From: Blasia pusilla
Lineage: Eukaryota
DNA length: 64,000 nt
Assembly: GCA_050084515.1 (NCBI GenBank)
Contig: CM114271.1
Location: forward strand, 12,772,001 to 12,836,000
Direction of reading: 5' to 3'
The position numbers were made by a program, and so were the translations under genes. Every line of letters starts with the position of its first letter. The stretch's first letter is position 1. Of the stretch, positions 1 through 27,643 are shown piece by piece. The notes under the pieces were generated by a model. The model did not search any database and was not told the origin of the DNA. It saw only the letters and a program-made list of their open reading frames with translations.

Positions 1-2436
1 GTTGGTGCGACCATACCGCCGGGAGGCCATCAATGTCCTCATTGTCAGGTATCCTCTTTCAGCGTTGGAGTGTGTCATGCATACGTATTTTTCATTGTGT
101 ACGACTTTAGCTCTACGTCCGAGTAGACCAGGCTGGCAGTTCATGTTGGCTCCCATATTCATCCTATTATCAGTGCAATTCAGAGACACATCAAGGAGGA
201 TGTGGCAAAGAAAGTGGCCGAGGTACACAGAAACTCTCCGAGATCAAAGCCCGGAGTGATCAAGTTAACAATAACATTACAAATTTGTGAACAATTGCTT
301 GGAATCCCTGGGCAGGGCGAGATCACGGCTGTTGAGGAGAAACAACTATGGGGAAATCTTGTTGGTCCTAAATACTTACGGAACTTTCTGCGTCAAATAC
401 GAGTACTTGATGGAAAGACGGCCAAAATGACACCATTTCCATAATCAAGGCCAACTCCAGATTTCCATTTATTTAGAGATGGCAATTCATGGGCCAAGGA
501 GGTGAAGGATCGAGGGCTTATGTCTTCAAAATATCAACTACATGGCCGTCCAATGGCCTTGATCTATAAGATCGAGGCCACTCGACGAGGCCAAGATCGA
601 ATGAGGGAAGGGGAAGATCTCTACGGCAGATGAGTAAGCTTTGATATTTGCTACAGAGTGCTGAATGGATGGTTGATCATGGGTGCTCACATTTACAACC
701 ATGTGGAGAAGGGACTCAAAACTATATTTGTCTGTGAGGTAAAAGCAGAAGACGTTGGTAGTTTGAAGATGTGTTGGTTACTCTTATTGGAGGTGGTGAA
801 GGAAAACAAAAGGCCACTTGTGGAAATTTATGGATTCATGGCGGACAATTCACAACCTAGATGGATTGCTATCAAGGAAGGGTTCTGGGGTGGAGAGGTT
901 AAACTAGAGAGGGAAAGGTCGGATGCTTTCCATTGGCAACAGTCTATGACCCGATACACCAAATCTTCCATCAAGGAGAATAAGAGAACAAAGCATGTCA
1001 CTCTACTCCATTGCTCTCAGGACAACAAAACCTTGAAAAAGGCCATGGAGTGCCAAGAAGAACTTTATGGAAGGTGGAGGAAGCATGCAATTGAGGGGAA
1101 GTACAAAGAGTTGTGCTCTTGGCTCAGTGGGTGGACTGTACGAATGAGACATGTTGAGAATTTTTTGAAAAGCTCATGTTTCGAGCTAATGTTGAAAATT
1201 GTTTGAAAAGATGTAGCTAAAGTTGAGAAGCGTGGGAACTATAGGGATTTCAAACCGTAGAAACCAAACAACCCGTCGGATACGATTGGTTGTCTAAGTG
1301 TGCAACCCGTCAAAAACGGACACGTTGCATCAAGAATGTTTGTGCAACCCGATGGAACTTGACTAGTTGCATGAGTGTCACACCCGTCGGAGCCCGACAG
1401 GATGCATGAGGAATGTTTGTGCAACCCGTCAAAACCCGACTAGTTGTATGGATGTGCAACCCATCCAAACCCGGCGGGTTGCAAGTTGCATGTATACAAG
1501 GCTTGCAAATAGTTTGATCCGCATGGGTTGCAAGCCGCAAGGCTGAGATTTAACTCGCTCCGCAGCCCATCAGAATCTGACAAGTTGCGTCTGTCTGCAA
1601 CCTGTCGGATTCTGACTAGTGCGTTTGTATCCGAATCCTCACATTTAGACAGGTTGCGGCTGTCTCCAACTCCTCGCATCTAGACACGTTGCATCAATGC
1701 AAGTTAATTGGAACCCGTCGAATTCCGACAAGTTGCAAAGCTTCGTGTGTGGACACTTCTTGCAAGCCAACGGAATCTGACAGGTTGCACAAGGATTTTT
1801 GAGACCAGACCGGCCTGCTTCTCACAACCCGTCTAATTTCAACGAATTTTAGTAGCAGGTTCCTGGGTGTTGGGTTGCAATAAGAGGTTATTGGGACATT
1901 TCAGGGATGCCTACAACTTGTAACCCGTCTAAATCCAACGGGTTGCATTAGGTGGTTCCTGGGTGCTGAAACACGTCAAAAAATGGCGGGTTGCACAATC
2001 ATTCGTGGGATGCCTCGGATTTTTTCTTCGCTTATAAAGCTATATTCGTTCCTTTTTCAGATTTCCGTCGTTGCAGGGATTGAACATTCATGGAAATGGC
2101 CTGTGCCCTAACACAAGTGGAGCACAGAATGTTCATTCCTCTTGGAGGTCATGACAAGCATGCCAAAGAATTTCACTTGTGGAGGCATGCCAACAAGACC
2201 ATGCAAGAGCAATGCTACGGTCTGCACCATCCCATATCTTCCTCACAAAAGGCATAACTAAAGGAAAGGGGCCTTCGATTTACAAGCTCTATGTCAGGGC
2301 GACTGTAAGATCCGGTGATGAGAAACTCTATGTGGAAGCCTTCAATCGGTGCGTAGTAGGAACTTCCCTCGAGCAAGACGTACACATTGGTGGGGATATT
2401 CGTGGGCGTGTTTCAAGACGTTCCATACAGATGGTG
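1..2436 (+). pseudogene. MULE transposase copy A, N-terminal/central part (frameshifts and stops; intron about 1.17-2.06 kb)
   Basis: RLAVHVGSHIHP (WRKY/GCM-like HxH end), xVSFD, GFMADNS and SDAFHWQQS (DDE-core and CxxH-position motifs). After the acceptor TTTTTCAG at 2060 comes PNTSGA. Confidence 0.75.
1269..1995. repeat. Cluster of degenerate 27-bp palindromes in the transposase A intron
   Basis: Copies at about 1269, 1302, 1344, 1379, 1421, 1456, 1562, 1597, 1710, 1762 and 1920. Confidence 0.85.
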
Positions 2437-2856
2437 GAGGTGCGGTAAGAGGAGAGGAAGAGAGGAAGAGAGGAGAGAGGAGAGAGGAAACTACCCTCAA
2501 CCAAAAGAGATACTTTTTTTTTAAGAGAGATTCCTGTGATTTGAAGAGAGTTTCCGTTGGGTGGAAGAGAGGAAAATTTTTGTGTGATTTTTTTTGCACT
2601 TTTCTGCTCAGTTCTTAAGCACTTCCACAATTTTTTTTTTCTTCCACATTTTGGCAACCCCTCTGAGTCCGACGAGTTGCAAATTGCACAAAATTTAGAA
2701 ACTGAAAAATCAGTGGAATCATAAGTGCGGAACCAATCACTTTTTCCATCCAAGGTCTGAAAAAGTCTATCATTTTCACTTGGCTGAATAGAGTTTAAGC
2801 TCAAAGTGAAGGTTCTGGAAAAATGAAAGTACAATCTAAAACCTCATTTTGCTTCC

Positions 2857-5800
2857 TCAAAGTGGTTTGTTTAAAATACTTTGCACTTCTTTGAAGGACA
2901 GAACTGGTTGGTGGATTCCTACTCCTACCTCCGACTTTCTTAAAACTACAAGCAACACATAGTACATGTGCTTACAAGGGAAATACCTTTTGCCTCTTGT
3001 CTCTCTTTGGACAAAGTCAGCACATGAACATGTGGGAAAGCAACAGATGTGCACCACATACACCCATGTGACACTTGAATTTACAGTGTTGTTCGTGAAC
3101 CAATACATCCTTCCTATTCCATTGCCACTGTGGACATCTTTTGTGGCGATGATCTCCATTTTTGCCTCTCAAGCTGATGCAATTCGCTTTGCTCTCTCCA
3201 CCGTTGGCAGCCTGATAAGACTTGCGGAAAGCACAAGATTCATTTGGGCAGAAGAAGAACTTCAATTGATCCCCAGTCCTTGTGAAACGATCAAAGGTTG
3301 TGAGTCCCCAAAACCGAGGCAGTCGTCATCCAGTCCTTGTACAGTTCTTATTTAGGAAAGTTCCGCATACTCTCCTAATGCCATCAGATCCTTCCCTGCA
3401 AGTGGATCCACGTCCAGGGTTGCTCCAAATATATGCCACCATTTCAGATTGCAATCCACCTCCATGAACAGAATCCCATATTGTTGAGCCACCCCAGCGA
3501 TCGGATGTTGCGAACTTCCAGGAACGGAGGGCTTTTGAAATAAAACATTCATTGATTTTGGAGATGTAACTCCATCACAGATTTGGGAGCAATCCAGGGT
3601 CCCCGAATACTTGGGTGGCGCAATTTCCTCATCAAAATCAATCACCAGATTCGTTCCTCGATGCTGCCTCTTCACCTGCCTGAAGTCAAGATACTTATCT
3701 CGTCTCCACTAGTCTCGTTCGGACTACTCTACCACCATCTGTATGGGACGTCTTGAAACGTCTTGCTCGAGGGGAGTTCCTGCTACGCATCGATTGAAGG
3801 CTTCCACATAGAGTTTCTCATGACTCGATCTCACAGCCACCATGACATAGAGCTCGTAGATCGAAGGCCCCCTTCCTTTTGTTATGCCTTTTGTGAGGAA
3901 GATATGGGATGTTGCAGATTGTAGCATTGCTCTTGCCTGGTCTTGTTGGCATGCCTCCACAAGTGAAATTCTTTGGCATGCTTGTGACAACCTCCACGAG
4001 GAATGAACACTTTCTGCTCCACTTGTGTTGGGGCAAAGGGCATTTTCATGAATGTTCAATCCCTGCAACAACGACACTGTGAGAAGGGAACCAAAATAGC
4101 TCTATGAGCAAAGAAAAAAGCTATTGTCGAAACAACACGGGTTGCAAGTCGGAGGCATCCCATGAATGACTCTGTAACCCGTTGGTTTCTGACGTGTTGC
4201 AACAACCGGGAACCACATGGTACAACCCGTCGGATTTCGACGGGTTGCAAGTAAATTTGGCCATGCGACTTGCAACCCGTCCTTTTCTGACTGGTTGCAC
4301 TCTCAAGCAACCTGTCAACCCGTCTGATTCCGACGGGTTGCAAGTAAATTTGGCCATGCGATTTGCAACCCGTCGGCTTTCGAGTGGTTGCACACTCAGG
4401 AAACCCGTCAATAAGCGACGGGTTGAACACTGAGGGAGGCAACATGTCGCATCCAACAAGTTGTTTGGTTTCTTCGGTTTGAGATCCCTATAGTGCCCAC
4501 CCTTCTCACCTTAAGCTACAACTCTTCAAAAAAAATTCAGCGAGACAAATAAGTGAACTCACCTCCCGCATGAAGTTTCCCCATTGTCTCATTCGTACAG
4601 TCCATCAACTCAACCAAGAGCATAACTCTTTGTACGTCCCCTCAATCGCATGTTTCCTTCACCACCCATGAATTTCTTCTTGGCATTCCATGGCGTGTTT
4701 CAAGGTTTTGTTGTCCTTGCAGCGTTGGAGTAGAGTGACATGCTCCGTCCTCTTATTCTCCTTGATGCAAGATTTGGTATACCGGGTTATAGACTGTTGC
4801 CAATGGAAAGCATCCGACCTTTCCGGTTGAACCTCCCCACCCCAAAACACTTCCCTGATAGCAATCCACCCAGGTTGTGCATTTTCCGCCATGAACCCAT
4901 AAGTTTCCGGAGGTGGCCTTTTTTTTTCCTTTACCACCTCCAATAAGAGTAACCGGCACATCTTCAAATTGCCAACGTCTTCAGCTTTTACTTCACAGAA
5001 AAATATAGTTTTGAGTCCCTTCTCCACATGGTCATAAATATGAGCATCCATTGTCAACCATCCGTTTAGCACTATGTAGCAAATATCAAAGCTTACCCAG
5101 CTACCGTGAAGATCTTCCCCTTCCCTCATTCGATCTATAAGATCGAGGCCACTCGACGGACGTGTCGTTGATATTTTGAAGACATAGGCCCTGGATCCTT
5201 CGCCTCCTTGGCCCATGAACTGCCATCTCTGAATGAATGGAAATCTGGAGTTGGCCTTGATTCTAGCAATGGCATCCATTTCGGCCGTCTTTCCATCCCA
5301 TACCCGTATTTGACGTAGCAAATTCCGGAAGCATTCAGGATTAGCGAGAAATGCGAGATTTTCCCATAGTTGTTTCTCCTCAGCAGCGGTGATCTCGCCC
5401 TGTCCAAGGATTCCAAGAAATTTTTCACAAATTTGTGATGTTGTTGTTAGCTTGATCACTCCGGGCTTTGAACCCGGAGAGTTTTTGAAGACCTCGGCCA
5501 CTTTCTTTGCCACATCCTCCTTGATGTGTCTCTGAATTGCATGGGTCACAAGATGAGTGTGGGAGCCAACATGAACTGCCAGCCTTGTGTACTATGACGT
5601 GGAGCCCAAGTCGTGGACAATGGAAAATATGTATGCAAGACACGCTCCAATGTAGAAAGGGGATGCTTGAAAATAAGGACATCGATGGCCTCTTGGCGGT
5701 ATGGTGGCACCCACCTCATATGGAGTTTCTGCATTCTTGGGGGGGAATTGCGACGTATTGACCCGCCCGTTGCGCTCTATATACATGCATGATGGACTTC

Positions 5801-6569
5801 TATAATCCAAGGCTCCAACGCATTGGCGGCGGGAGACAATCCAAGGACCATCTGGAATTGAAGCACTAGTCCGTTGAAGCCTACACCATCGATGACAATC
5901 AGACTTTCTGTCCATATCCTTCAAGCGTCCTCCATCTTTCTTTTGAGCAAGAGCAGTAAGTGGAGGCAACTAAAAAATACAATTACCATCATACGTGGGC
6001 GGAAACTTGTCGACAAGAATGTGCTTGAACATTTTCAAGGCCAGAGACGATAGCAAACTATTTCTTGATATTCGCAAGAGGAACAAATAGGCAGACAAAG
6101 GGCCTGATTGGTGTTCGACCGATTCAATGAGATTGAAAACATCGGGAATTTCTTCAGGAAGTACAACATTGTAACGAACGTGTGAAGTTGGAGTCGATTC
6201 CGGATCTACTGAGCTAGGAGTTGCAAACGTAGAGCTCAGTGCACTAGGAAATTCTCAACCGTCTACTTGGGAAACAAAGGAATTCAGAGGCAAGCCGTTA
6301 ACTTTGTATTGACCATTTGCTAGAGGTAGGAGATTCCATACTTTATGGTCTGCAATTACAAGTTGGATTGTCTCAGCTATTCTATACTCTGTACCGTCCA
6401 CCCTAACATCCTTGGACACAAAGATGGTTCCAATTTGGAGAAGAAATCGAACTGAGAGAAAATTTTCATCCACAGGTATGAAAGACTCACGAGCTTGCGG
6501 TCGAACGATTTCTGATTGAGGAAGGGCCGCTAGATGACTGCCACAAGTGAGTTTCACATAATTATCCAT
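2857..6569 (-). pseudogene. MULE transposase copy B (Zn-finger DNA-binding region, DDE core, SWIM); 2 exons, disrupted
   Basis: ORF pieces 6255-6599, 5592-5969, 4659-5549, 3724-4077, 3352-3675 and 2857-3159 read as one protein. Motifs: WVSFD, FMAEN (D in copy A), AFHWQQS, NTSGAESVH (third acidic residue), PTCSC...PCKH. Intron 4562-4077 (AG|GTGAGT ... TCACAG). The start codon is tentative. Confidence 0.8.
4130..4430. repeat. Cluster of 27-bp palindromes in the transposase B intron
   Basis: For example 4222 ACAACCCGTCGGATTTCGACGGGTTGC; also 4272, 4315, 4365 and 4401. Confidence 0.9.
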
Positions 6570-6756
6570 TCCCAAAAGATTCCACCAGGAGGAGACCAAG
6601 AATAAGAATTAGGATAAGAATGGGTATGGGAATGAGAATGAGAATGAGAATGTTCAATTTATAGTGAATAGGGACTCAGATTCTCCTGACAAAATTTGAC
6701 TGAAAAGATGAAGATTGGTAGGTGAGATTGTTTGACATGATGGATTCAATTCTGTT

Positions 6757-7440
6757 GCAACCTGTCGGAGTCCGATGGGTTGCAAAATTTGGGAATCACA
6801 GACGTGGGTTACGAAGCACCCAATTCCGTTTTTTGTTTCCGTGTGCCAATGCAAATTGGAAGCCGTCAGAGTTCGTTGGGTTGGGACCCCCTTCATGCCG
6901 ACCAATGCTCTTTTGAGACGATTTTGCTAGCATCAAGCACAAGACATCGCTTGCATTTGCTAAGGTAACTAATCGCTGGGGACTATTACGGGATTGTCCA
7001 ACTCAAGGTAGACCTTGTGACCCGTCGGATTGCAAGAGGTTTCGTGGGAACTATCCGTTGTCGCATTGTTACCCGAGGAATAGAAAAGAGTGCAACCTAT
7101 CTGTAACCGACGAGTTGCCCAAGTACCTTGCCTATTACCCCAAGATGAGGGAAGCGTGCAACCTGTCGACCTCTGACGGGTTGCGCAAGTGCCTCGCCTC
7201 GTAACGCTTACATGAAGGAAGCGTGCGACCCGTCGGCCTCCGACGAGTTGCGCAGGTACCCCGCCTTGTTATCCCAAGACGAGGGAAGGGTACAACCCGT
7301 CGGTCTTCGACGGGTTGCGCGGGTACCTTGCGTTCTTCGCCCAAGACGGCAGAGGCGCGCAACCTGTCAGACTCCGACGGGTTGCTAAGACAGCTCGGCT
7401 AGGAGGGATGCCTCCAACCCGTCAAAGACCGTCGGGTTGG
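6757..7440. repeat. Palindrome cluster between the divergent genes, including a 67-bp tandem array
   Basis: Palindromes start at 6757, 7018, 7092, 7158, 7225, 7292, 7359 and 7414. The period is 67 bp from 7158 to 7359. Confidence 0.9.
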
Positions 7441-7529
7441 TGGTTTTCACGTACAGACCTCCATAACAGCCGACACGTCATCGTCGGAACGACGGTGCGA
7501 CCCAACGGTCAGCCCAACGACTCGAAAAG

Positions 7530-7537
7530 TATAAATA
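7530..7537 (+). promoter_or_regulatory. TATA box of the cargo gene
   Basis: TATAAATA, followed by a pyrimidine-rich stretch, about 250 bp upstream of ATG 7779. Confidence 0.55.
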
Positions 7538-7632
7538 GGCTAGGGTTCGCTCATTTCAGGTTTTTCGTTTCGCGATCTCGATTGCTCTTCAGCGCAGCAG
7601 CGGACCAGATACCAATGGGCGCCTTACACAAC

Positions 7633-7728
7633 GACTCATCGCGAGACTCATCCCAAGACGATTCAAGCGACTCATCAAGGTGACTCATCAAGGCAACTCA
7701 TCCGAGTGACTCATCAACGCGACTCATC
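7633..7728 (+). repeat. Seven (G/A)ACTCATC motifs, mostly 12-13 bp apart
   Basis: Starts at 7633, 7645, 7669, 7682, 7695, 7708 and 7721. Confidence 0.85.
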
Positions 7729-9020
7729 ATGCACAGAAAGTAATTTCGTTGTCGAGGAGGTGGCATTTTTCGGGAATAATGACGAGGAAAAAAAGTCAGG
7801 CAAGCAAGGCTGGGAGCTTCACTCCCAAGTCTAGGACTCGTGCGTCACCATCTCTAGGGCCTCATTCGGCCAATGAGATAAGGCAGCAAGAGATCAAGGA
7901 GCGCGAAAGGGAAGCGGAGATGCACAGGTAGGATCTTCTTGCAAAATGTGTTAAGGAGACGATTGAAAAACAAAACGCAGAGGCCAAGGCATCGCAGGCC
8001 TTGAAGAAAAGGATCTCCGAGGAGAAGCATGAAAAGAAGCGTGTGGACGTGTTGGTGAGGAGAGCGAAATTGACAAAATCTTGAAAGGAAAAAGGATGCC
8101 ATTGAAGAAAGCCCGCCCATCCAACCAAAACTGTTGAGATGCAGGAAATGTCTTCGATGAAGTCCGGGGAAACAATCAATATAAAATCGGCTAAGGAAAC
8201 GGGCAAAGTTCAAGTGACGAATGATGAGGTCATGAGGACCGCCTGCGTGGAGATGGTGGACATCTCTGAAGAAGCAGGAGAGCAATCTTCCTCGTCTCTT
8301 AGCCCCGGGGAAGAAATCGACCTCTATCAGATAGACGAGTTTCCACTGGACTTGCCAACTACTGTCCCAGAGCAATTGGCAGGCCAAGACACCAACCCAA
8401 TCTTCGAGCGGGTAAGATACGATCTTTGTTCTTTGAGTTATGTGAAGGCCCATGTTGCAATTCATTGGCAATTGAGTGTAGTTTATTGACCTTATCCCCG
8501 TTGTGATAGGTGGTAAAGTAGATGGCAATGATGGAGGGCCAAAACGCCCCGAGAATTCCACTTTTCCAATTGTAGACAATGGAGTACGTTTGCAAAATTC
8601 AATCTGACGAGGATATTGCGAAGCTGAAATAATCAGCAGCGACAACATCCTACGTTGATAGCTTCCCTACGTTCTATGTTCAGCATTACGATGAACATGG
8701 AACCCAAACGCTAGGTACGGAGGAGGACTTGGAAGCTCTCGAAACATTCTGGAGGATGAGAGATCAGGAATTCATAAGGGCGATTGAGGGGACGGAATTC
8801 AACTGGATGCGGAATCTGTATTTCTTCATCTGGGATGGAAACCACAAGTTCATGGCGTGGACCCAGTTTGCAGAGGAGCGCCAAAACTCATTGGAGGCGC
8901 ATTTCTGCGTGAAGGCAGTAGTGCTACATCCATACCCTCATCACATGGCGACGGTGGAGATGGCCATGTATACCATGAACACGGCTCCACCAACTCTCCT
9001 TTTCCTTTATTTTGATTGCT

Positions 9021-9667
9021 GCAAACCGTCGGACTCTGACGAGTTGTTTAACTAATGGTAACAAAACATCAGATGCCTTAAAGCAACTCGTCAAAGTCCG
9101 ACGAGTTGCTTGACTGGCTGCAATTTTTAGGATGTTTTAGGCTGAAAGCAACTCGTCGGAGTCCGACGAGTTGCTCGACTGGCCGCTGTTTTTATGATAT
9201 TTTTGGCCGAAAGCAACTCGTCCAAGTCCGACGAGTTGCTCGACTGGCCGCTGTTTTTAGGATGTTTTTGGCCGAAAGCAACTCCTCGGAGTCCAACGAG
9301 TTGCTCGACTAGTCGCTATTTTTAAGATGTTTTTGGCCGAAAGCAACTCGTCGGACTCCGACGGGTTGCATTCGTTGGCACGAGAAGGTGATCAGAGTAG
9401 GGGCGCTTGATTTTTGGCATCAAATTGCAGCTTTACTTGAAATTGGGCAACGTGTCGGACTTCGACGGGTTGACATGTTCACTTTTCCCGTGGAGACCAC
9501 TCTTTGAATACAAATTATCTGACAACCTTTCAGAGTCCAACGAGTTGAAACAAGGCAATCACAAATCTGAATGCAATCCGTCGGACTCCGATGGGTTGCA
9601 AAATTTAGCTCATAGCTACCATTCTGACCATGAGGTGTGACGACGTGTCGGAGTCCAACTGGTTGCA
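9021..9667. repeat. Palindrome cluster in cargo-gene intron 1, including a 5 x 65-bp tandem array
   Basis: Array palindromes start at 9083, 9148, 9213, 9278 and 9343. Further copies at about 9021, 9447, 9521, 9573 and 9640. Confidence 0.9.
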
Positions 9668-11789
9668 GGAACCCATGTAGCTTGCAAAATTTCTTATATT
9701 GAATTTGGATGTGCAAGATTGTATCCGAGGGGAATGTCACCCACCATTGGATACAGGATTGCGATCAGGGGAAGAAAGTGCTAACGATGCACCCGAAAGA
9801 GTACAAGGGGTTCTTGGGCAACGCCCTTGTAAATGAGATGCTGGCAAAGGGGGCTCAAATAAAAAAAAGACTTGGGCAAATAAATTTATTTCCCAAGATG
9901 CAGCTGTGACAATCCTTTGCTGGTCAAAGATACAGACGGCCAAGAAGAGCGCTTCATTGGGGTCGGAGCGGAGGTAGAAAGTGTATGTATCTGAGCGTGC
10001 TAAGTTCATCCAAGCTGCAGTATCTGCAACTACGAAGTACACTGCAAGAAAGATCCAGGGCTACATCGCCATTCTCAACCCCGAACTTGGCCTCGATTTC
10101 TACAAGGAGCTCAAGGCGATAATCAAGCGCCAGCGGAAGAGAGATGAAGATCCGTAGGGTCCGATTGGGGAGAAAGTGTCTCTCGACCGCGTCCATCGAT
10201 TTGCCTCGTCTGGAATTTCGGAATTTAGGAGAATCCGACTGATGAAAATCAGTCTCGAGGGCACAGAGGCCCAAAAGAGGGTGGCACACCATCCTCCGGG
10301 TGTCTCTGATCCAGTGATCTCCCACAGGCTCTGTGAATGGTCATTATGGGACGCGTTGCGGCTTCTCGAGAAGTCTATGCTCGTGGGTCTCCAAGCGAAG
10401 CTAAAAAAAATAGAGGCAGTTCCAAAGGAAGCAAACCTAGAGAGTGCTGAAGATTTTGAACTTTGGATGGATGACATCCAGGACAAGCTCATAAAAAATC
10501 CAGGCTTCATGACGATGTTCAAGGATCACATACTCCCTCATGTGGACCTGATGAAGAAATAGAGGCAAAGAAAAGGGATTTCGCAAAGAAAAAGTGAGAT
10601 CTTCAGGAGCAGGCGGCCGATGCATCTTGACTAAGAGCTGCCCGACGCATGGTGTTCAGGTACCTTGTCCATTGTAAGAATGCAGGTACGTGGCAAAAAA
10701 TACCGGCAGCCTCCAAATTGTGGGCTTCTCCACCTAATGGAGAGACATTTTCCATGTACGACGTGGAGATGGCTCAAAGCATCTCTGACTGGGAGGTGGA
10801 GAATTGCCCCATCTGGTTGGACTTCAACGACCCTGAGGACATAACCAAGAAAAATCTACGCCTGCTGATGCAGTGGCCGCAGGTAGGGACGACATCCCCA
10901 ATTTCGTGCAGCCTGAAGACTTTTTCGAAGGAGATGGGGAGAAGCAAGCCCTCGAGACAGCGGAGTTGGTGTCCAAGGTCGTCACCGCCAAGGACAAATC
11001 TACATCGGGTCTCAAAGCCAAGGCGAGGGGATCGAAGAATTCCGAGGCCAAGTCTTCCCAAAAAGAGGCTGAAAATTCAAGGCGAGAGGAAAAATTGTCC
11101 GGGCAAGTGGGGAGAGAGGGTCGGACCAGGTCCTCCGCAAAAAAAACTCCACCAAAGTCTGAGGTAATAGAGACCCCAACAACCCGACTGCAGACTCGGG
11201 AGAAGCGGAAGTGAGAGGCACCAGGTTTGTCCCAAGGAGTAGACAAGGATGTGGAATACACTCCATCATCCTTGGGAAGACATAGAGAAACAACGACCCG
11301 GACAAGCATCATCATTCACTGAACGAATCTTATGGATGAGTTGCAAAGTTTCAATTCCCAAGCGTTGACACCCGCCATCGACAAATTGACAATGCTGGGA
11401 CGTAAGCTTCAACGAAACGGGCACGCTCCCAGGACGGTCCATGGGGAGGTTGAGGAGGTGGCGGTGGATCTCCTCGTCGCTGATTTGCCCTTGGGATTGC
11501 GCTTGTGGGACGAGAATCCGTCCGACGGTGTCCTAGACTGGAATGTCACTCTTTCTTATGACCAGATCCCGCTCCTGATTTCCTTTGAAAACACTTATCT
11601 CAGTGACACGGGCTATTTTTTGGTCTTGACAGGAGGGAGCAAGGATGAGCTCTTCAACCTACAGTGCGTCAAGAGGTTGCTGAAGTGGAGGACGGCGCAA
11701 TCGTGGGTCATCAAGAACAAGTACCCACTCCGATCCGCGACGAGTCAAATCCGGGTAAGGGCTCTAAATCCATATCCAAATTGTCTTGC

Positions 11790-12110
11790 TCTCACGGGTT
11801 GCATCTCTGCATGCAACCCGTCCGATTTTCTGAGTTGAAGACTTCGGTGGTGCAATCTGTCTGAAAGCAACGGGTTGCAAATTTACCGCAAGTCTCCATT
11901 GGGTGAATGCAACCCGTCGGAACTCGACGGGTTGCAAGTGCGTATGCTTTTCCTTGTGTTTTTGGAATGATGCAACCCGTATGAATGCGACGGGTTGCTC
12001 TTAGCCAACCATGGGCTGCTCTAAGCCAACAACCTGTCGCCTTCCGACGGGTTGCTCATGGCAAAAAGAATCACTAACACTTGTAAAACAACCCGTTGGA
12101 CTCTGACATG
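11790..12110. repeat. Palindrome cluster in cargo-gene intron 2
   Basis: For example 11909 GCAACCCGTCGGAACTCGACGGGTTGC; also 11812, 11852, 11972 and 12029. Confidence 0.85.
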
Positions 12111-12788
12111 TAGCTCCAATGTTAGGACTATAACTAAGTTCTCTGGGGTTAAGCGAAGCTCTTTGGGAACAAGTTGCACATTGTGCCACCATTCTGATAG
12201 TATACCTTTCTTGTTGTTGCATACAGAAATTAGCACTTTCTTGTTGTTGACATTTTTTCCAACCTGCTTCTTTAAAGATGGACCACTCCTTTGTCTACAA
12301 TTTTGTAAGGCCTGAGCACAACTTCAAGTGTTTTAGATCCTTGATCTAGTGGATCCATGCTCCGATGGGTATAGCTTAGATAATTTATACAACCCCCCCC
12401 CCCCCCCCCCCCCGGGAATTTACATGCAAAATGGTACCCCCTTACTTGGAGGAAGGGAAAAGTCGCCAACGTTGATGCAAACACTCATCGAGCTCTGTTC
12501 AAGGCCGAGTGACTTGGTGTTCGACTTAGTGGGCCTTTCAAGGGCGAGTATCAGAGGCGCCTCGCAGAGTGGAAGAACATTCTCTGCCTTGAGGGAAGGC
12601 ATGAACTATTTGACCTTTGCAAAGGGGCAAAGGCAGATTATGACAGGCTAGTTGGGGCGTACAACTCTCCTCCGAAGCCGAGAGCTCCGGTTCCAGACCC
12701 ACCATTGGTAGTGATACCATCGTCACTTCCCACGATTTTGAAAATTGGGAGGGCAAGGCCGACAATAATTTTGGAAGAGCTCTCGGAC

Positions 12789-13890
12789 GATGACGAGGCA
12801 GAAGAATTCATAGAATAGATCAAATGTACAGTTCCGAGCTTCCTTCAGATGTAATAAAGGACAAGATTTTTTCGAACGATGATGGTGTTTGTAAAAGGTT
12901 GCTAAATATCTTTTTTGGTCTTGTCAATTGTGATTGTCTATGTACTCTGACAGTTCATATTGCAACCCGTAGGATTGCCACGGGTTGCAACTTTTCACTT
13001 TGTGACCACTGCACCTTTTTAACCACTTCCAAGCAACCTGTCGGATTCAGACAGGTTGGTTGCGTGAGTGATCAGACTCTTTCCCTGTTAGTCCAACTTT
13101 ACAGGCATTCTGGTGGGCTTCTTCACTTTGGCACCTTCCCCTAGTTTTTTCAAACAAGTCTTAGGCTTCCTCTCTTCTCTAAGACGTGTTGGATTCCTAC
13201 TACCTGGCTGAGGACATGATGGTGTCTCCAAGGACGGAGCACATATTGATACTTGATGGGTATAACCTTGCAGAGCGTACAAGATTTACTGCCGAGGAAG
13301 GCGGTGGGACTCAAATCAATTTACATGGGACCGTTATGGTGTACCTAGGGGGTTGCCAAGGCTCTCGAATTTGCCAACATTTTTATCCCCGTCTACAATC
13401 GGCCACAAGAGCCACTTGTATCCCAAGACATTCCTTTTGTATAGGAACCTAGGAGAGTTGGGAGTAAAGTTGTAGATGACGAGGCTGAAGAAATCATAGA
13501 CTAGATCACATGTATATTTCCGAGCTTCCTTTGGATGTAATAATGGACAAGATTTTTTCAAACGATAATGGTGTTTGTAAAAGTTTGCTGAATATTTTTT
13601 TTGGACTTGTCGATTGTGTTCGTCTAGCTACTCAGAATGTTTATTTTGCAACCCGTCTGATTCCGACGGGTTGCAACTTTTCACTTTTTCACCACTGCAA
13701 CTTTTTAACCATTTCCAAGCAAGCTGTCGGATTTTGACAGGTTGGCTGCTTGAGCGATCGGAATCTTTCCCTATGAGACCAACTTCTGAGGCATTGTGGC
13801 AGGATTCTTCACTTTTGGCTCGTTCCCCTAGTATTGTCAAACCAGTCGTAGGCTTATTTTCTTCTCTAAGACGTGTTAGATTCCTATTGC
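12789..13890 (+). repeat. Diverged direct duplication of about 410 bp (12789-13200 and 13475-13890), each copy with two palindromes
   Basis: GATGACGAGGCAGAAGAATTCATAGAATAGATC... versus GATGACGAGGCTGAAGAAATCATAGACTAGATC..., colinear through ...CTCTAAGACGTGTT. Confidence 0.85.
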
Positions 13891-14583
13891 TTGTCGGATT
13901 GCCATTTTGGATTCCCAATCATTTGGATCTTCGTGGGTGCAGGGTGGAATGGAATCACTTCTCAAAATCTTTCCTTTGTTATGGTGAGTTTGCTTGCAAG
14001 GGGTGCAAGCCATCTGATTCCGACGGGTTGCAAGAGTTGCAACCTGTAAAATTCCGACGGATTGGGAGGGATGCAGCTTCTCGGTTTCTCAGCTTTAGGA
14101 TCTGAATGAAGGAACATCAATTCCTCTTTACTCCAGACAGCTAACAATCTTTTGGTTCAATTATTGTCTCATGTGTACACATTTCACAAAGTTGGTCTTT
14201 ATTTGAACCTTTCATTGAGATGAGATTGCTACTTTTGGTCACATTATTTGCCAATGGTCCTCCAAAAAAATAGCCTTGGGCACAACTTAGTGTAGATTTA
14301 GACAGAAAATGTGAAAAAACTTAGGCTCACATGGAGAGTGATGGGAAAATGTTTGTAGTGGTCTTATGATGTCTACTAGTTTTTTGCCCCCTAGAAAAAG
14401 GAGGTTTCTTTAGGCCCGAACGTGGACCACTACCTACTCTCTTCTAAAGATTTCATGAATTTGAAAGCAAACAAAAATTTCAAATATGTCAAAAAGTTTT
14501 GAAAAGAGGAGGCGGATTTGGCCCTTTTTTTTAAAAAGAGACTCTCCTCTCTTCCTCTCTCCTGCCAGAATACCAGCCCCTGG

Positions 14584-15734
14584 GATGGTGGTAGAGCAGT
14601 CCGAGCGAGACTCGTGAAGACCATATAAGTATCTTGACTTCAGGCAAGTGAAGAGCTAGCATCAAGGAACAAACCCAGTGATTGATTTGGATGAAGAAAT
14701 TACGCCGCCTAGGTATTTGGAGACCCCGGATTTCTCCCAAGTCAGAGTAGAAGGAACTTCTCTAAAATCAGTGAATTTTTTATTTCAAAAGCCTTCCGTT
14801 GCTGGAAGTTTGCAACATCGAGTCTATGGGTTAGTTCAACAGTATGGGATTCCGGTCACCAAGGTGGATTGCAACCTCAAAAGGTTGCATATATCTTGGA
14901 GCAACCCTGGATGTGGACCCACTTGCAGGGCAGGATCTGATGGTATAAGGAGAGGATGTGGCACTTTCCTAATTAAGAACTGTACAAGGACTAGATGACG
15001 AGTGTGTGGCTTCGGGGAACTCAAAACCTTTGATCATTTCACGAGGACCGGGGATCAATTGAAGTACTTCTTATGCCCAAATGAATCCTATGCTTTCCGA
15101 AAGTCTTATCTGGCTGCCATTGGAGCTCTAGGGAATACCCCACGATTTGGCCCATTGCCACAGGTACAAATTGCACTAAGGACAAAGTGGACAATCTTAC
15201 AAGTGACTGTTTTAGACTCGTAGACGGAGGAAGTTCGATGCATGTTCGCATTACAGAGACCTTTGCATTTCGGATTCAACCCAAGATTGATGTCAACATG
15301 TATTCGGAGAAGGTGGATGATCTCAATCCACTATTTATGTTTGAGTCTAGAAATGGGATGAAGAGAAAGAGAATATGTAGGCCAACAGTGGAGAGAGCAA
15401 AGCAAATCGCACATCAGCTTGGGAGGCAAACATGGACATCATCGCCACAAAAGATGTTTAGAGTGGCAATGGAATAGGAAGGATGTAGTGGGTCAGGAGC
15501 AAAACTGTAAATTAAAGTGTCACAGGGATGTATGTGGTGCACATATGTTGCTTTCCCACATGTTCTTGTGGTGACTTTGTCCAAAGAGAGACAAGTGGGA
15601 AAAGGTATTTCCCTTGTAAGCACATGTTTTATGTGTTGCTTGTAGTTTTAAGACAGTCGGAGGTAGGAGTAGGAATCCACCAACCAATTATGTCCCTCAA
15701 AGAAGTGCCAAGTATTTTAAACAAACCACTTTGA
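14584..15734 (+). pseudogene. MULE transposase copy A, C-terminal part with SWIM zinc finger
   Basis: Homologous to the reverse complement of 3740-2857. PTCSCGDFVQRETSGKRYFPCKHMFYV is a CxC-xn-CxH SWIM finger. Stop at 15734. Confidence 0.8.
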
Positions 15735-16501
15735 GGATGCAAAATGAGGTCTTAGATCTGATTTTCATTTTCCAGAATCTTCACTTTGAGCTTGAACTCT
15801 ATTCAGCCAAGGGAAAATGACAGATTTTTTCCAGACCTTGGATGGAAAAAGTGATTTGTTCCACATTTATGATTCCAATGAATTTTCAGTTTTTTAAATT
15901 TTGTGCAAGTTGCAACACGTCGGATTCAGACGGTTTGTCGAAATGTGGAAGAGGAAAAAAATTTGTGGGAATGCCTAAGCACTGAGAATAAAAGTGCAAA
16001 AAAAATCACACAAAAAGTTTCCTCTCTTCAACCAAATGGAAACTCTCTTTAAAAAAAATCATCTCTTTGGGTTGAAGGTAGTTTCCTCTCTCCTCTCTTC
16101 CTCTCTTCCTCTCCTCTTACCGCGCCTCAAGTGTTGGGTAACTACCACTTGGGCTCGCCCTAGCGTCGACGGGACAAATCACTCTGTCTTGGGGTTTGGG
16201 GTGATCTTACTCGTGAGTGCATGAGTGAACTTAGTGACGCGCCTAAGTTGAATACGAGAGCGACCCAAAAGTAGTACGAATTGTGTACCATGTAAACAGG
16301 CGGGATGTTTACGAGTTGTGAGCCAAGAGAATTCTTAGGTAGCAAACTTAGTTAGCTTATTTGATAGGTTAGACCGGTTGAGAATTGGTCTAAGCTCATC
16401 GAAGAGGAGATGCTAAACGATGTTAAGTGTTGCACGCAAAAACCTAAGACTTAAGCCAAAAGAGGAATTTTAGGTTGGCTACTAAAATTAAGAAGGACAC
16501 A

Positions 16502-21869: not shown

Positions 21870-22841
21870 TAGAGGTAGTTTTTTTTTTTTTTCCTAATAA
21901 TTCATGTTATAATTGTCAAGTGTATTTAATAGTTTTATGGTGTGTTATGCAGATGGGGAGACTGCGGCATGGTGATATCACAAATACAACGATGTCAAGT
22001 ATGCATATGAACGTACAAAAGAACCCTTCTCCAATGTAAGCACCTCGCTTTACATTTGCATAATGATGACTTCTATGATACTTTTGTCATATATGTACGT
22101 TTATCATGTGTTCTAACCCATTCCATAAAATCCTAAGGATTTGCAAGACTATCGAAAATTGATGCGTGCAAAAGCACAACAAAAATGGTGTATCTGTTGT
22201 AAGGACATTCTACTGCAACAAACATGAAAGATGAACTCCTTGCCGAGACATCTCCAACGTAAGTCTACTCCACTAATCATCATTTAGCAAGCCCAAATTT
22301 ATATCTTCCATAGTCCCAACTTCTAATATTATTTGCTTTGTTTCTTCAATTGTTGTGTTATTCCAGACTTCCCATTCCATTGAATCCTATCGATATACGT
22401 GATTTCCGAAAGGTTGCACGTGGTGAGGCTTAAAAATGAAAATGTGCCATTTGTGCGGATAAAATGGAAGTTCTCAAAGAAAAAAAGAAGGAAAGCGCTC
22501 CATGTTCAAGTTGAGCCTTCTTTGGTAGTCGAGGCTCTTCCAACTATTCCAATTATGGAGATTTTGACTCAAATCATAAGGTATCTATCCTACTTTTTAT
22601 CCTCATTCGAAATCAGCCATATATGATTTATGTCTATTGTTTATAATATATGTTCATTATTTCTTCAGGCCTTCCAATGCGAATAGAGTGATGTTGGGAG
22701 AAAATCAATAAGTTCATCTTCAATCCCCAAAAGATATTTATGTTCCGCCAAGACCAACACTTCAATTATCTACCTTTGCATTCCATGAAGTTATTGAGAA
22801 TCCTTCTACAATCAAGCCAACTACTTATGTAACACCAAGAG

Positions 22842-25800
22842 TTGAGTTACCTACCGCTCTCCCTATTCCGGGTGAACTATTGGAAGGTGTACATGAAGTG
22901 CTTGAGAATACTTCCAGTCTTCCCCATCCTTGGGGATGAAGTAATGTCAAGAGTAGGTCATGTGTCTTCCACCTCTAATGGAGTTGTGTTACCTATAGAA
23001 AATACCCCACTACCAAATGCTTCTATAATTCACCAGGTGTCTAATGTTGATAGGATAATAAGGGTAAATTCCTTAATTAATCTTGTAAGGAGACCAAATT
23101 TCCAAGAAAGTGATATTAGGAAGTTGCGATTACACAAGAGTTTGAGTCCTACTAGTGGTCGTCATACATTGGGTTCTATGATAGAAATATGCCCATCATG
23201 TTGTGCCTTACATTGGAAATGTGAAATGGTGAAAGATACAAAGTTTATCGACTCACCATATGACATGTGTTATGGCCATGGGAGAATACATTTTCCCCTC
23301 TTGAAATTTTCTCCTATATTTCTGATTTCGGGTGTTGGTCCTAGAAGTCTTCATTTCCTTAAACATTCTCGAGCTTACAATTCCGTGCTTCAACTTGCAC
23401 CTTCTGGTGTGCACGTAAATGAACAAGTTGGTGGCATTGGACACTTCACGATCCAAGGAGGGATCTATCATTCTATTGGACCCTTACATCTTGATATAGG
23501 GGGGCATCCCCAATTTGCTCAACTCTATATTCATGATACTGCGAATGAATTGGAGAATCATGGAAGATTTATGTCTAGATCTTCAGATCTTAACATGGAC
23601 ATCTTGAAAGGGCTACAAGAGATGTTGCATGAGTGCAATCCATATGTGAAGATCTTTTGTCATATGGCATATGAAGCAAGTGATCTTAATATACAGATCA
23701 TTCTCAAGGCAAGTAAGAGAGATCTTGATGCAAAGCGTTATAACTTACCAACTACTTCTGAGGTTGCGGAAATTTTACCTGGTGATGGAAGTGAACACGT
23801 TGAATATCGTGATATCATTGTATGACAACATGGAGGAGGAGTGAAGTGCATATCTGACCTCAATGAAGCATATATTCCATTACACTTTGCTCTATTATCT
23901 ATCTATGGTGAGCAAGGTGACATGTTGGAATATCCTACGGGAGACTCGAAGGGACTCGAAGACCCGAATATCTAGGTCATGTCACTCATGGGGAAGAAGG
24001 ACACATTGACGCTTCAGATGATTTTATGTAGGAGGAAAGATTTGCTGTTGATAATGTTGAGGAAAGAAGGTCAAAGAGTGATACCGCCTTACAATTTGCA
24101 TGTTTTCGACTTCAAACGCGGATTGGAGGTTAAGATGACAATCGGTTATTGCGATTTGGTTACTTACTCAAGAATATATGGTCGAAACTTATGCCAATGT
24201 AGAGATGCAAAGATTATCATGGGTCAAATTAAATGAGAAGGAGTTGAGGGCTGAATTATATCAAGGTTTAAGGATGCCATCCATCAACATGTTGTTGATA
24301 GTAGAAGGTTTGGGAGATACATAGTATTACCCTATTCTTTTATTGGAGGGCCACGTCATATGCATCAATTGAATCATGATGCAATTGCAATCGTGAGACA
24401 GTTGGGAAAGCATGACAGTTGGGAAAGCCTGACTATTTTTTGACCATGACATGCAATCCAAAGTGGAAGGAAATTACATCTGCCTCATTACCCTATTAAT
24501 CAGCTGCGAACCGACTCAATTTGGTCGTGCGAGTTTTTTAGAAGAAAAAGAAGGAGCTATTACGACTTATCATCAAAAATAAAATATTAGGTCGAGTTTT
24601 CGGATGCATCAATGTGGTGGAATTCCAAAAAAGAGGTTTGCCACATGTTCACATTTTTATTATTTTAGGTCTTGAGGATAAACCATGTACCACTTTTGAT
24701 TATGATCGTATCATTTCAGCAGAAATCCTAGATCAGTCTACCCATCAAAGGTTGTATTCTACTATTGCTAATTGTATGGTTCACGGTCCACGTGGACCAT
24801 TAAATCCCAATGCACCATGTATGGATAAGGAAACAAAAAAGTGTACCAAAGGCTATCCTAAAGCTTTTGCAGCCAACATGACAGAGACGGAAGATGGTTA
24901 CCCGATCTATCATAGGTAAGGATATTTTGATCTTGGCTTTTGTTTCTTGTATTTTTATTGTAAGCCATATAACATCCATGTAATCATGATTTTTTATATA
25001 TATTCTTAGATTGGAGAATGGAAGGGCAGTAACTAAGCATGAACATTCATTGGATAATCGTTGGGTCGTGCCCTACAATCCTATGTTGTGCACACTCTTT
25101 GATTGTCATAGTAATTTGGAGATCACAAGTAGTGTCTATGCCATGAAGTATTTATATAAATATGTATATAAGGGGTTCGAGGCGGTGACATTTAACGTTT
25201 TGAAAGATATGGATACATCCATCGCATTGGGAGTCATTGATGAGAGATCGTCATATATTGATGCGAGGTATGATTCTACTAATTGATGATTTTTTGTTGA
25301 CCTATGTGTTTCTAAATATCTTTTAGAATTTGATTTAGGGTCTTCTAATATATTCGACATTTTTCTTCCAGATATATATCTTGTTCAGAGGCATGTTGGC
25401 GACTCTTCAAGTTTAGTCTACATGTTGAACTTCCAAGTATTGTGCAATTAGCTACTCTTCTTCCATAGCAAAAAATGGTGTACTTCAATGATGTTGACTC
25501 TCCCGCAGATATTTTGCAACTAAATAGAGAGACAACTCTAACACAATGGTTTGCAACTAATCTATCCGACTCCACAGCCTGACAATATATGTATGTAGAT
25601 TTTCCTTCATATTATTGTTGGACTAAAAAGAGATGGATTTAGAGGGTACAAAAAAGAAATGGTTTTGGCCATCCCATTAGCCGGTTATACCTTACTCATC
25701 CAGGTGAATACCCAACAATTTATCCTATGCTTTTTTCTTTACATTGGATTTTCCTCTTATATTCATTCATTTTAAAGTGAGTGAATGATTGTGGAAAGGG

Positions 25801-27643
25801 ATGAGCTGATTTATTTCACACATGTATAGGTGAAGGAGAACGTCATTGGTTGAGATTACTCCTCCACAATGTTCAAGGAGCAACTACATACAAATGTTTG
25901 AGAATTGTTGATGAAGTACTGTGTCTAACATTCAAGGAGGCTGCAATCCAATTGGGACTCCTTGAGGATGATAGGGAAGTATTCTCCTGCTTTGAAGAAG
26001 CTTTTATGATCCGTACGGGTTCTACACTTCGCCATCTGTTTGCAATTATTCTAGCTTACACCACATCGACTCAACCTGATACACTTTGGAGTCAATTCTT
26101 GAGTCTCTTGGTAGAAGATCTCTTAAATGAACGACGTGAGGTAAGAAATTATCACTATCACTCCTTACACCATTTGTTTCCTTCCTCAATAGTAACATAG
26201 TTTTTAATGAAGAAACTAACAATGATTTGGACATTTTCAAAACTTTGCCATTGCAAAAAACATGAGTTCCTAGTCTTCCCGTTGATGATGCTATAATTAA
26301 AACTACATTGTTGGAAGTCCACTATTACTTACAAGATCAAGGAAAGAGATTGTTTGACTTTCCTGACATGCCTCAAGCTAATTTCGAAAGCCTTCGTTCC
26401 TATTCATATTTAGAGGAACAAGAGCTATTATATGATATTGAGGAATTATTTGAGCGCATACAATTTGGAGAATTGTGTCTAAATGAAGGACAACGTGTTG
26501 TTTGGGATGCTATACATGATGAGCTTGGTAAAATATGTGTGAATGATCCATAATCTCCAAAAGTTTTTTTCAAAGATGGTCTAGGTGGAACGGGAAAAAC
26601 ATATTTATATAATCTTCTGCTTGCAAGTGTAAGGAGTGCAAGAGGTATAGCTTTAGCAGTAGCATCATCTGGAATTGCTGCTCTATTGTTAGATGGAGGA
26701 TGTATTGCCCATTCACGCTTCAAGTTCCCTATCAATCTTTATGAGAGCTCTACTTGCAAGTTAGTGCCATTACCTACTTTACATCAAATTCTATCAATAC
26801 ATATAATCTCTCAAAGTATTGAGAATTCTAATTTACTTCTCTGTATCGTTTGTAGTTTATCAGTCAATATTAATCAAGCACGCTTAATCCGTGATGCGAT
26901 ACTCATTATATGGGACAAAGCACCTCTGGCTCATCGTCATGCATTCGAGGCCGTGAATCGCACTTTACAAGATATCATGGGAATAGTCTCTGATGATCTA
27001 AGACAAATACCATTTGGTGGAAAACTCATGATATTTGGTGGTGACTTTCGTCAAGTTTTTTCTGTTGTTCGTCATGGGGATCGGCCGCGAATCGTGCAAG
27101 CCACTATAAAGAGGTCATCTCTTTGGTCTTATGTTAAGGTCATGAAGTTGAAAACAAACATGCGAGTTCAAAGGTTGGAAGGTCATTTGCGTATTGAACA
27201 ACAAGCTTTTGCTGATTGGTTATTGAAAATGGGAGAGGATTGTGTACATTTACACCCTCATTTGGGAGAAGACTTTATACATTTACCATCTGAAATTGTC
27301 ACTAAGAATAATAAGATATGCGATCTTATTGAAGAATATTGGAGATTGAGTTTTCATTCCACGTATCCCATTGATTGCATCTAATTGAGGTTTGCCATTT
27401 GATTTATGTAGGTTTCAATTCCCTACTCGTCCGACGTCTGCTATGACTATTAATAAATCTGAAGGTCAAATTTTGCAAAAAGTTGGAATTTACTTGCCTA
27501 CTCCCGTATTTTCCCATGGTCAATTGTATGTAGCATTATGTAGAGTAGGGAAGAAAAACTCTATCCACATTACCATTGGAAGTGACGAACATTCAAATGT
27601 AAAAGGTGATTGTACACGAAATGTAGTGTATAACGATGGATGA
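22842..27643 (+). pseudogene. Helitron Rep/PIF1-helicase (RepHel), multi-exon, with stops, frameshifts and an apparent internal deletion near 27340
   Basis: CPSCCALHW, PQFAQLYIHD, RYNLPTTSEVA, VEFQKRGLPHVH (HUH), KYLYKYVYKG, GLGGTGKT (Walker A), GGDFRQ, AMTINKSEGQ, FSHGQLYVALCRV. Confidence 0.92.

Follow-up and report, generated by a model that had tools for sequence, protein, structure and literature searches.

A nested, decayed Mutator-like element of Blasia pusilla with a putative methylase-like accessory gene and element-specific palindromes

The window analysed here is a 64-kb stretch of Blasia pusilla DNA (64,000 nucleotides; contig CM114271.1 of assembly GCA_050084515.1, positions 12,772,001 to 12,836,000). 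Near its start lies a transposable element that carries a transposase-like gene, a second gene oriented divergently from it and dozens of copies of one palindrome. The element, here named B, occupies positions 2438–14582 (~12,145 bp), and repeat analysis and blastn show that another copy of the same family, copy A, is broken exactly there. Analysis of the repeats in the first 20 kb and blastn against the whole window reveal that positions 1–2436 and 14584–16128 are the halves of one sequence, which after joining is the reverse-complement homologue of positions 5714–3758 and 3739–2437 in the inserted copy. Because the two halves join into one homologous sequence, the 12.1-kb stretch is an insertion into an oppositely oriented copy of its own family; copy A itself runs off the start of the window. 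The insertion is flanked by a 9-bp target-site duplication (TSD), identical at eight of nine positions between the flanks, which fits the range of about 8–11 bp for Mutator-like elements (MULEs). Over its first 45 nt, the left end of B shows 98% complementarity with the right end of copy A, and the two ends of B itself are imperfect repeats with a GA-rich core in both. A first-pass annotation of this locus, made from the sequence alone, had described a bounded 12.1-kb element as a single transposable unit. Its coordinates were right to 1–2 bp and the TSD and terminal repeats bear it out, but the nesting inside a copy of the same family had been overlooked.

Global alignment of copies A and B gives 85.3% identity (2732 of 3203 aligned bases). 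The differences comprise 264 transitions and 207 transversions, 55 being changes of CpG to TpG or CpA, and both copies are old. The left part of copy A contains 10 palindromes (1268–1994). Searching the window with the element by blastn located no further family copy in the 64 kb. The insertion of the family into itself suggests that it was formerly abundant or that it prefers its own sequence.

The transposase gene of B is found on the minus strand in a decayed state. Its long frame (6608–4662) is broken by three in-frame stops (6255, 5970 and 5592), further transposase-side open reading frames (ORFs) are present on the same strand at 4101–3727 and 3708–3355, and an exon with a SWIM-type CxCxnCxH pattern lies at 3168–2860. 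The Pfam SWIM model (PF04434) scores this last ORF at E 0.0077 and 16.2 bits, under its cut-off of 19.6; the SWIM zinc finger is common in MULEs, though not universal. Neither the Pfam MULE model (PF10551) nor any other transposase model gives a match at E ≤ 1 in 11 ORFs of the transposase region (seven of the inserted copy, three of host copy A and the SWIM ORF). In an ESM Atlas feature search, which provides a lead and not a proof, a 310-aa ORF falls among MULE and ZSWIM clusters with a score of 0.93, and its ten best family-bearing matches belong to one family or clan throughout. D...D...xxH motifs can be discerned by eye. The 9-bp duplication, the terminal repeats and the Atlas placement together make Mutator-like the best assignment for an element whose ORFs pass no transposase profile. 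In the MULE DDE/SWIM transposase called earlier, the minus-strand SWIM-like pattern and the Atlas placement hold, whereas Pfam recognition is absent for MULE and sub-threshold for SWIM.

The second gene, termed the cargo or accessory gene, is located on the plus strand and consists of several exons, its ORFs being a few frames parted by single stops. Seven in-frame stops (7929, 8082, 8103, 9975, 10155, 11212 and 11320) interrupt it. With these and the three stops in the transposase, both genes are dead in B and nothing is made from this copy. Splice sites read from the sequence predict a GT-AG intron of 582 bp (11755–12336), whose removal would join the exon at 11323–11754 in phase to the last exon at 12337–12648. 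An exhaustive phmmer search with the 171-aa ORF at 11323–11835 returned four proteins at E ≤ 0.001. Three of them, from the liverworts Riccia fluitans and R. sorocarpa, are annotated as 'hypothetical proteins' (P0001, 1.9e-09; P0002, 1.2e-08; P0004, 7.7e-04), and their genes KAL2653794.1, KAL3687003.1 and KAL3676856.1 are on Riccia chromosomes. The fourth, a metagenome protein of 3044 aa (P0003), was rejected as a beta-propeller repeat artefact. No algal protein was among the phmmer matches of this N-terminal methylase-like exon; its relatives come from Riccia only.

By tblastn, the Riccia proteins are collinear with positions 9903–10418, 10634–10834 and 11419–11793. They are ~30% identical to the window ORF, and P0002 and P0004 are divergent paralogues of the same species. 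No Pfam family is found in them, and their gene models start downstream of an ORF with a DGNHK motif (discussed below) and stop before the last cargo exon. The middle region of the cargo, which P0001 and P0002 have in common with it, has no Pfam, PHROG, NCBIfam or PADLOC match. Word-based protein searches gave nothing for exon 11323–11835 against longer proteins and nothing for exon 12337–12648 against proteins of near length, and with P0002 as the query they returned only P0002 itself. A metagenome scan with exon peptide patterns gave 101 stretches, none of them confirmed.

The palindromes were searched with the query GCAACCCGTC-N7-GACGGGTTGC, allowing up to three mismatches, and the expectation was taken from shuffles. 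There are 36 matches in the window against 0.00 expected, all of them between positions 1302 and 15938 (29 in B, 7 in A). With up to four mismatches the number rises to 43, of which 32 are in B, and the spacer is 7 nt long in 42 of these 43. Half-sites with at most one mismatch are similarly concentrated, with 67 of the 69 in the first 16 kb and two in the remaining 48 kb. In full, the consensus reads TGCAACCCGTCGGA-N-TCCGACGGGTTGCA, a palindrome of 29 nt with four CpG (individual copies are described as 27–29 bp). Information per position is 1.45 bit in the arms, a value due in part to ascertainment; the unselected spacer has 0.69 bit and the flanks have 0.14 bit. None of the 32 palindromes of B overlaps a homology-supported exon, in agreement with the earlier description of dozens of copies of one palindrome confined to non-coding DNA. 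Among 95 departures of the arms from the consensus, 56 are C to T or G to A, as expected for decay of methylated DNA. Exact matches to the palindrome in metagenomes (six contigs) were each a single isolated copy with no degenerate copies or element-ORF similarity, and were dismissed as chance.

Long perfect palindromes are classically bound by dimeric DNA-binding proteins. The palindromes described here would most likely be the binding site of such a protein encoded by the element, for which the accessory protein would be the first candidate and the transposase the second; the link between accessory protein and palindromes is one that we infer. Both the periods and the unit sequences vary from array to array, and as the motif persists through this variation, it is the motif itself that has been kept and not one repeat unit. 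An alternative, to which we give a minor but real chance, is that the palindromes are unrelated to the cargo, being either transposase-binding or transpososome sites or self-amplifying hairpin minisatellites that accumulate where there is no coding selection. The regular periods of the tandem arrays (50, 65 and 67 bp) fit slippage or unequal exchange, and single palindromes fold as stable single-strand DNA hairpins (−12.9 to −16.3 kcal/mol, z −5.2 to −7.9). The palindrome located ~220 bp from the left end is also kept in copy A (2654 and 15912), and element proteins of CACTA and hAT transposons usually bind subterminal repeats. However, the array units differ while the palindrome persists, and the palindromes are spread across the whole 12 kb and not just at the ends. 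Moreover, changes that keep the base pairing show no significant excess (of 588 positions, 428 are paired where shuffles average 420, and the observed number is equalled or exceeded in 206 of 2000 shuffles), so selection for the hairpin as such is not supported. One tandem array and one duplication account for most of the 19 compensated changes. At 9083–9304, four tandem palindromes share a paired change, a C of the left arm having become T and the complementary G of the right arm A, which leaves their symmetry perfect; this represents one inherited event and is by itself no evidence of selection.

The last cargo exon matches methyltransferase models in four libraries, always weakly and always in the region of motifs X to I. 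Pfam PF01555 gives E 0.19 and 12.1 bits, under the gathering cut-off of 26.7, and the preceding exon has no match to this Pfam model. The model phrog_3008 matches the last exon at E 0.0046, two more PHROGs also match it, and PADLOC MTase_II models match it at E 0.004, 0.0086 and 0.049. In phages, tblastn with the last exon finds 86 records (E up to 10); among the 60 listed, 42 lie under annotated methyltransferases of many unrelated phage groups and 3 are unannotated. Three of the matched phage enzymes are bona fide PF01555 proteins. In comparison with the phage enzymes, K, I, S, P, D, D and GR are retained in the exon, and 13 of 23 residues are identical to those of a Loktanella phage methylase (L002) over the stretch that begins with the KP motif and ends at the D of motif I. 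For the preceding exon, hhalign weakly places V-D-L-L-V-A-D-L-P on the DPPY strand of the phage enzymes and G-Y-F-L-V-L on the next strand. The order of the exons, IV-like and then X–I, is that of the permuted beta class. PDB sequence searches with the exon profile and with the last exon gave nothing relevant. In our reading of these sequences, the domain may be a real but highly diverged fold of the PF01555 type, with a catalytic motif that is non-canonical throughout the family.

Several minor observations concern the same region. A run of about 22 C (12391–12413) in the last exon is read as a proline run between the halves of the methylase-like domain and could be prone to slippage or an artefact of the assembly. 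The 101-aa ORF at 12513–12815, in another frame, overlaps the end of the last exon and resembles the segment after motif I, with an acidic tail. Searching phages by tblastn with the exon at 11323–11835 gave helicase matches only, which we regard as chance. The closest phage methylase (L001, Bacteroides phage BT-TP2 record 10672–13890) is encoded two genes upstream of the terminase, a placement that recalls the methylases of phage ParB–terminase loci described by Iyer et al. (PMC4738411).

The motif of strand 4 is D-L-P-L in B instead of the canonical (D/N/S)PP(Y/F/W), and the corresponding residues in Riccia are D-L-P-K (P0001), D-L-P-T (P0002) and D-I-P-T (P0004), so that D54 and P56 of D-x-P are invariant in all four sequences. 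In the loop that would bind S-adenosylmethionine (SAM), the residues F, G, G and T are replaced by V, L, R and S in B, a single decayed copy, and no canonical FxGxG was seen by eye in an alternative frame around the last exon. As all relatives have D-[LI]-P-x and the SAM-loop glycines are lost in B, active self-marking by N4-methylcytosine (4mC) or N6-methyladenine (6mA) becomes less likely. The cargo domain is probably not an active base amino-methyltransferase, and would then be a pseudo-enzyme. Precedents for this reading are the inactive methylase domains of the DIRS1 retrotransposon and of METTL14, in which catalytic and substrate-binding residues are disrupted and the domain is kept for binding or scaffolding (PMC4738411). 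DIRS1 differs in being a retroelement with a PCIF1-derived (group-2) domain, whereas the present element is a DNA transposon with a permuted PF01555-like domain.

The ParB-like part of the cargo is a separate question, and the DGNHK ORF is itself only a putative part of the cargo gene. DUF1015, which we take to be a member of the ParB clan, matches this ORF at E 0.014 and 14.8 bits, under its cut-off of 25.8, and the Atlas gives ParB_N (11% of one cluster) and DUF6551 as leads. ParB_N (PF02195) has no match at E ≤ 1 in Pfam, and PHROGs, NCBIfam and PADLOC have none either. With the ORF as tblastn query there were no matches in phages and two chance matches in plasmids, and the PDB sequence search returned nothing relevant. 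Foldseek with a low-confidence model against PDB gave a best E of 1.1 and no ParB. With the Pfam, tblastn, PDB and fold searches negative and the DGNHK motif standing alone, the ParB similarity failed the check that the first-pass annotation had itself proposed; it may be retained as a motif-level lead. The divergent spliced gene that was proposed along with it stands in its orientation, its multi-exon structure and its methylase-like C-terminal part. Likewise, the proposed N4/N6 methyltransferase-like motifs are weakly supported by the last exon, but a canonical catalytic motif and a score above the gathering cut-off are lacking.

These results bear on the function that had been proposed, in which an active ParB-fused N4-cytosine/N6-adenine methyltransferase loads on the palindromes and marks its own element against silencing by 5-methylcytosine (5mC). 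The last exon does resemble the SAM-binding region of PF01555 enzymes, the palindrome is specific to the element with its four CpG, and enzymes of the KsgA/Erm type with N-[IL]-P-Y indicate that a non-proline residue in the second position is tolerated in some amino-methyltransferases. The same function has also been proposed for ParB-like/methyltransferase accessory proteins of Ectocarpus and red-algal transposons (PMC12477816; 10.1101/2025.02.11.637652). Nevertheless, none of the four family members has the second proline or the aromatic residue in strand 4, both loop glycines are L and R in B, the searches for ParB found no support, and the gene has seven in-frame stops in B. We therefore regard an active methylase as improbable.

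We lean, though not strongly, towards the reading that B is an old, inactivated two-gene Mutator-like element of a land plant with an accessory pseudo-methylase, the palindromes being likely its binding sites. Gene 1 would encode a DDE transposase of the MURA type whose C terminus bears a SWIM finger. Gene 2, divergent from it out of the central region, would encode an accessory protein with a middle part of no recognised fold and a C-terminal, circularly permuted PF01555-like domain, which may have been kept as a DNA-binding or scaffolding module and not as a writer of 4mC or 6mA. The bound protein would coat the arrays and so mark the whole element, either for protection from silencing or for assembly of the transposition complex. 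The presence of the same palindrome in the transposase and cargo halves, together with the movement of the unit with its ends into copy A, suggests that the cargo is integral to the element and not a recent capture. That the second gene is a captured host gene, as in Pack-MULEs, or a one-off chimera with no role in the element seems very unlikely to us: MULEs often take up host genes (PMC6431247), the relatives found are only three Riccia 'hypothetical proteins' and one cargo-bearing copy is visible in the window, but the palindrome fills at least two cargo introns, the 3' region and a transposase intron, pointing to long residence, copy A received the entire unit with both ends included, and the divergent Riccia paralogues look like a dispersed, transposon-borne family and not like one orthologous host gene.

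Several points weigh against the pseudo-methylase reading. No ORF of the element reaches the gathering cut-off of any Pfam family, and a single complete, cargo-bearing copy is visible within the window. The N-terminal half of the methylase-like domain is missed by HMMER (−2.2 bits), and its hhalign support stands at E 0.016 with a probability of 2.8%. For the last exon, the 28 bits against a profile of three phage enzymes are inflated, these phages having been chosen as the best tblastn matches, and 15 of the 60 listed phage matches are to one mycobacteriophage minor tail protein, by chance. The structure models do not help either: the AlphaFold model of the exon with the three Riccia rows is unusable (predicted local distance difference test, pLDDT, 41.4), and the single-sequence model of the DGNHK ORF (pLDDT 53.0) was discarded. 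The SAM-loop substitutions may be post-inactivation damage of a single dead copy, a frameshift in B is possible at the overlapping frame 12513–12815, and the Riccia proteins may be host genes.

The best functional analogue of the proposed scheme is VANDAL21 of Arabidopsis, a MULE with extra genes whose accessory protein VANC binds a short motif amplified in the non-coding DNA of the element. The comparison with VANDAL and VANC drawn by the first-pass annotation is apt. B has a second gene, and each of its non-coding compartments contains palindromes specific to the element. VANC, which is without a methylase-like domain, works by causing 5mC to be lost; it is unrelated to the present protein, and the VANDAL motifs are short and not 27-bp palindromes.

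Nearer in architecture are accessory proteins reported from algal transposons, for which a scheme similar to ours has been proposed. Sola1-1_Ec32 of Ectocarpus is described as having a protein of 1104 aa with ParB-like and DNA-methyltransferase domains, encoded opposite the transposase in a Sola1 element of 21.5 kb and proposed to bind and modify its own element (PMC12477816). Both elements are large transposons with terminal inverted repeats in which a large gene opposite the transposase carries a prokaryote-type amino-methyltransferase domain or, in B, one resembling it, but Sola1-1_Ec32 belongs to Sola1 and to a brown alga, whereas B is Mutator-like and from a land plant. Compared by description, both domains are reported to be recognisable in Sola1-1_Ec32, while in B ParB is undetected and the catalytic motif is non-canonical. 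A preprint on Bostrychia describes PAG2 (PF01555 and SET), PAG3 (ParB-like and 2-oxoglutarate (2OG) oxygenase) and tandem inverted-repeat arrays, with PAG genes present on red-algal Plavaka, Chondrus crispus Mutator, Zisupton and Fanzor-bearing elements (10.1101/2025.02.11.637652). As in B, a PF01555-type domain is carried there by giant DNA transposons, Mutator included, most copies are degenerate, and the inverted-repeat arrays, which adjoin the accessory gene, are proposed binding sites. The evidence for ParB in PAG3 is also weak (HHpred E 0.29). In contrast to B, the PAG domains are split over two genes with SET and 2OG partners (10.1101/2025.02.11.637652), and profile searches found no SET or 2OG similarity in our cargo. 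ParB-HTH-fused methylases (HTH, helix-turn-helix) are listed in chlorophytes and chytrids as well by Iyer et al. (PMC4738411).

Set against the published descriptions, the architecture of B matches the algal class of ParB-like/methyltransferase accessory proteins (PMC12477816; 10.1101/2025.02.11.637652). In outline, the idea has been published before, for transposons of brown, red and green algae whose accessory proteins come with inverted-repeat arrays, and what is described here is a land-plant MULE variant in one dead copy; the belief that such cargo had never been described is outdated. For land-plant MULEs, searches of the literature, mostly outside subscription journals and without supplements, turned up no such cargo. 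Marchantia DN4MT1 and bdelloid N4CMT show a bacterial-type N6_N4 fold in eukaryotes, one of them a liverwort (10.1101/2021.02.12.428880). However, these are host genes with canonical TSPPY and demonstrated 4mC activity, whereas the cargo has D-L-P-L, and our searches found no link of the cargo to them.

A bolder version of the pseudo-methylase reading, which we put forward as speculative and rather doubtful, is that a land-plant (bryophyte-type) Mutator lineage has long kept a catalytically dead bacterial-type amino-methyltransferase as the sequence-specific reader of a self-seeded, CpG-rich palindrome of 29 bp, serving anti-silencing or self-recognition in a VANC-like manner, with the Riccia proteins being further copies or domesticated descendants. 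If intact members exist, the accessory class that combines methylase or ParB-like proteins with inverted-repeat arrays would extend to land plants and MULEs, and would offer a methylase fold seemingly without catalysis but with a kept role. It would also bear on the ways in which transposons escape host silencing or manipulate it, and on the origin of odd plant genes that resemble amino-methyltransferases. The value of the locus is that of a lead for a genome-wide survey of the family, not of a demonstrated system. The coordinates of its features are given in Table 1.

Table 1. Features of element B and of host copy A, in window coordinates.
Feature	Position	Strand	Basis or remark
Host copy A, left part, transposase region	1–2428	+	Inverted-repeat pairs; blastn 81.6–81.7%; global alignment
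Left TSD copy, AGATGGTGG	2429–2437		Read against the homologous site within B, which has no insertion
Left GA-rich terminal inverted repeat of B	2438–2540	+	Inverted-repeat pairs, end alignments
Lone palindrome near left end	2654		Motif search
Transposase gene, decayed	2860–6608	-	Reading frames, stops, weak SWIM, Atlas clusters
Palindrome array 1, 6 copies, spacing 35–50 bp	4174–4426		Presumed intron separating ORFs of the transposase
Palindrome array 2, 7 copies, period 67 bp	6757–7440		Between the divergently oriented genes
Cargo (accessory) gene, multi-exon, decayed, approximate span	7710–12815	+	Frames; collinear tblastn blocks to Riccia proteins
ORF with DGNHK motif, 'ParB-like' part	8633–8990 (ORF 8633–9052)	+	Contains W-D-G-N-H-K, which recalls the DGxHR box of ParB/Srx proteins
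Palindrome array 3, 8 copies, period 65 bp	9021–9599		Presumed cargo intron
Conserved middle region, no known family	9903–10834	+	Common to Riccia P0001 and P0002; tblastn E 2e-07 to 1e-09
Exon, N-terminal half of methylase-like domain	11323–11754	+	phmmer, hhalign; GTAAGG donor at 11755
Palindrome array 4, 4 copies	11852–12055		Inside the 582-bp cargo intron 11755–12336
Exon, C-terminal half (motif X–I region)	12337–12648	+	Pfam, PHROG, PADLOC, tblastn; follows TTTTAG acceptor ending 12336
3' non-coding region, direct duplication spaced by 687 bp	12789–14065		12789–13199 and 13475–13886, 85% identical
3' group, 6 palindromes	12962–14065		3' region
Right terminal inverted repeat of B, imperfect	14483–14582	-	GA-rich core common with left end
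Right TSD copy, GGATGGTGG	14583–14591		Compared with the uninterrupted homologous site
Host copy A, right part, own terminal repeat ends 16128	14592–16128	+	Inverted-repeat pairs; blastn 84–87%

Elsewhere in the window, three further regions with recognisable domains are present. ORFs of a PIF1-like helicase lie on the plus strand at 22833–27384 (PF05970, E 1.1e-61 on ORF 26554–27384) and probably belong to a Helitron-type element, with an upstream ORF of 330 aa that has no Pfam match. An ORF with an ARS2/SERRATE domain at 47501–48355 (PF04959, E 3.4e-25) is probably an exon of a host SERRATE-like gene. Lastly, a fragment of a Copia-type reverse transcriptase is located on the minus strand at 62177–62893 (RVT_2, E 3.1e-30).

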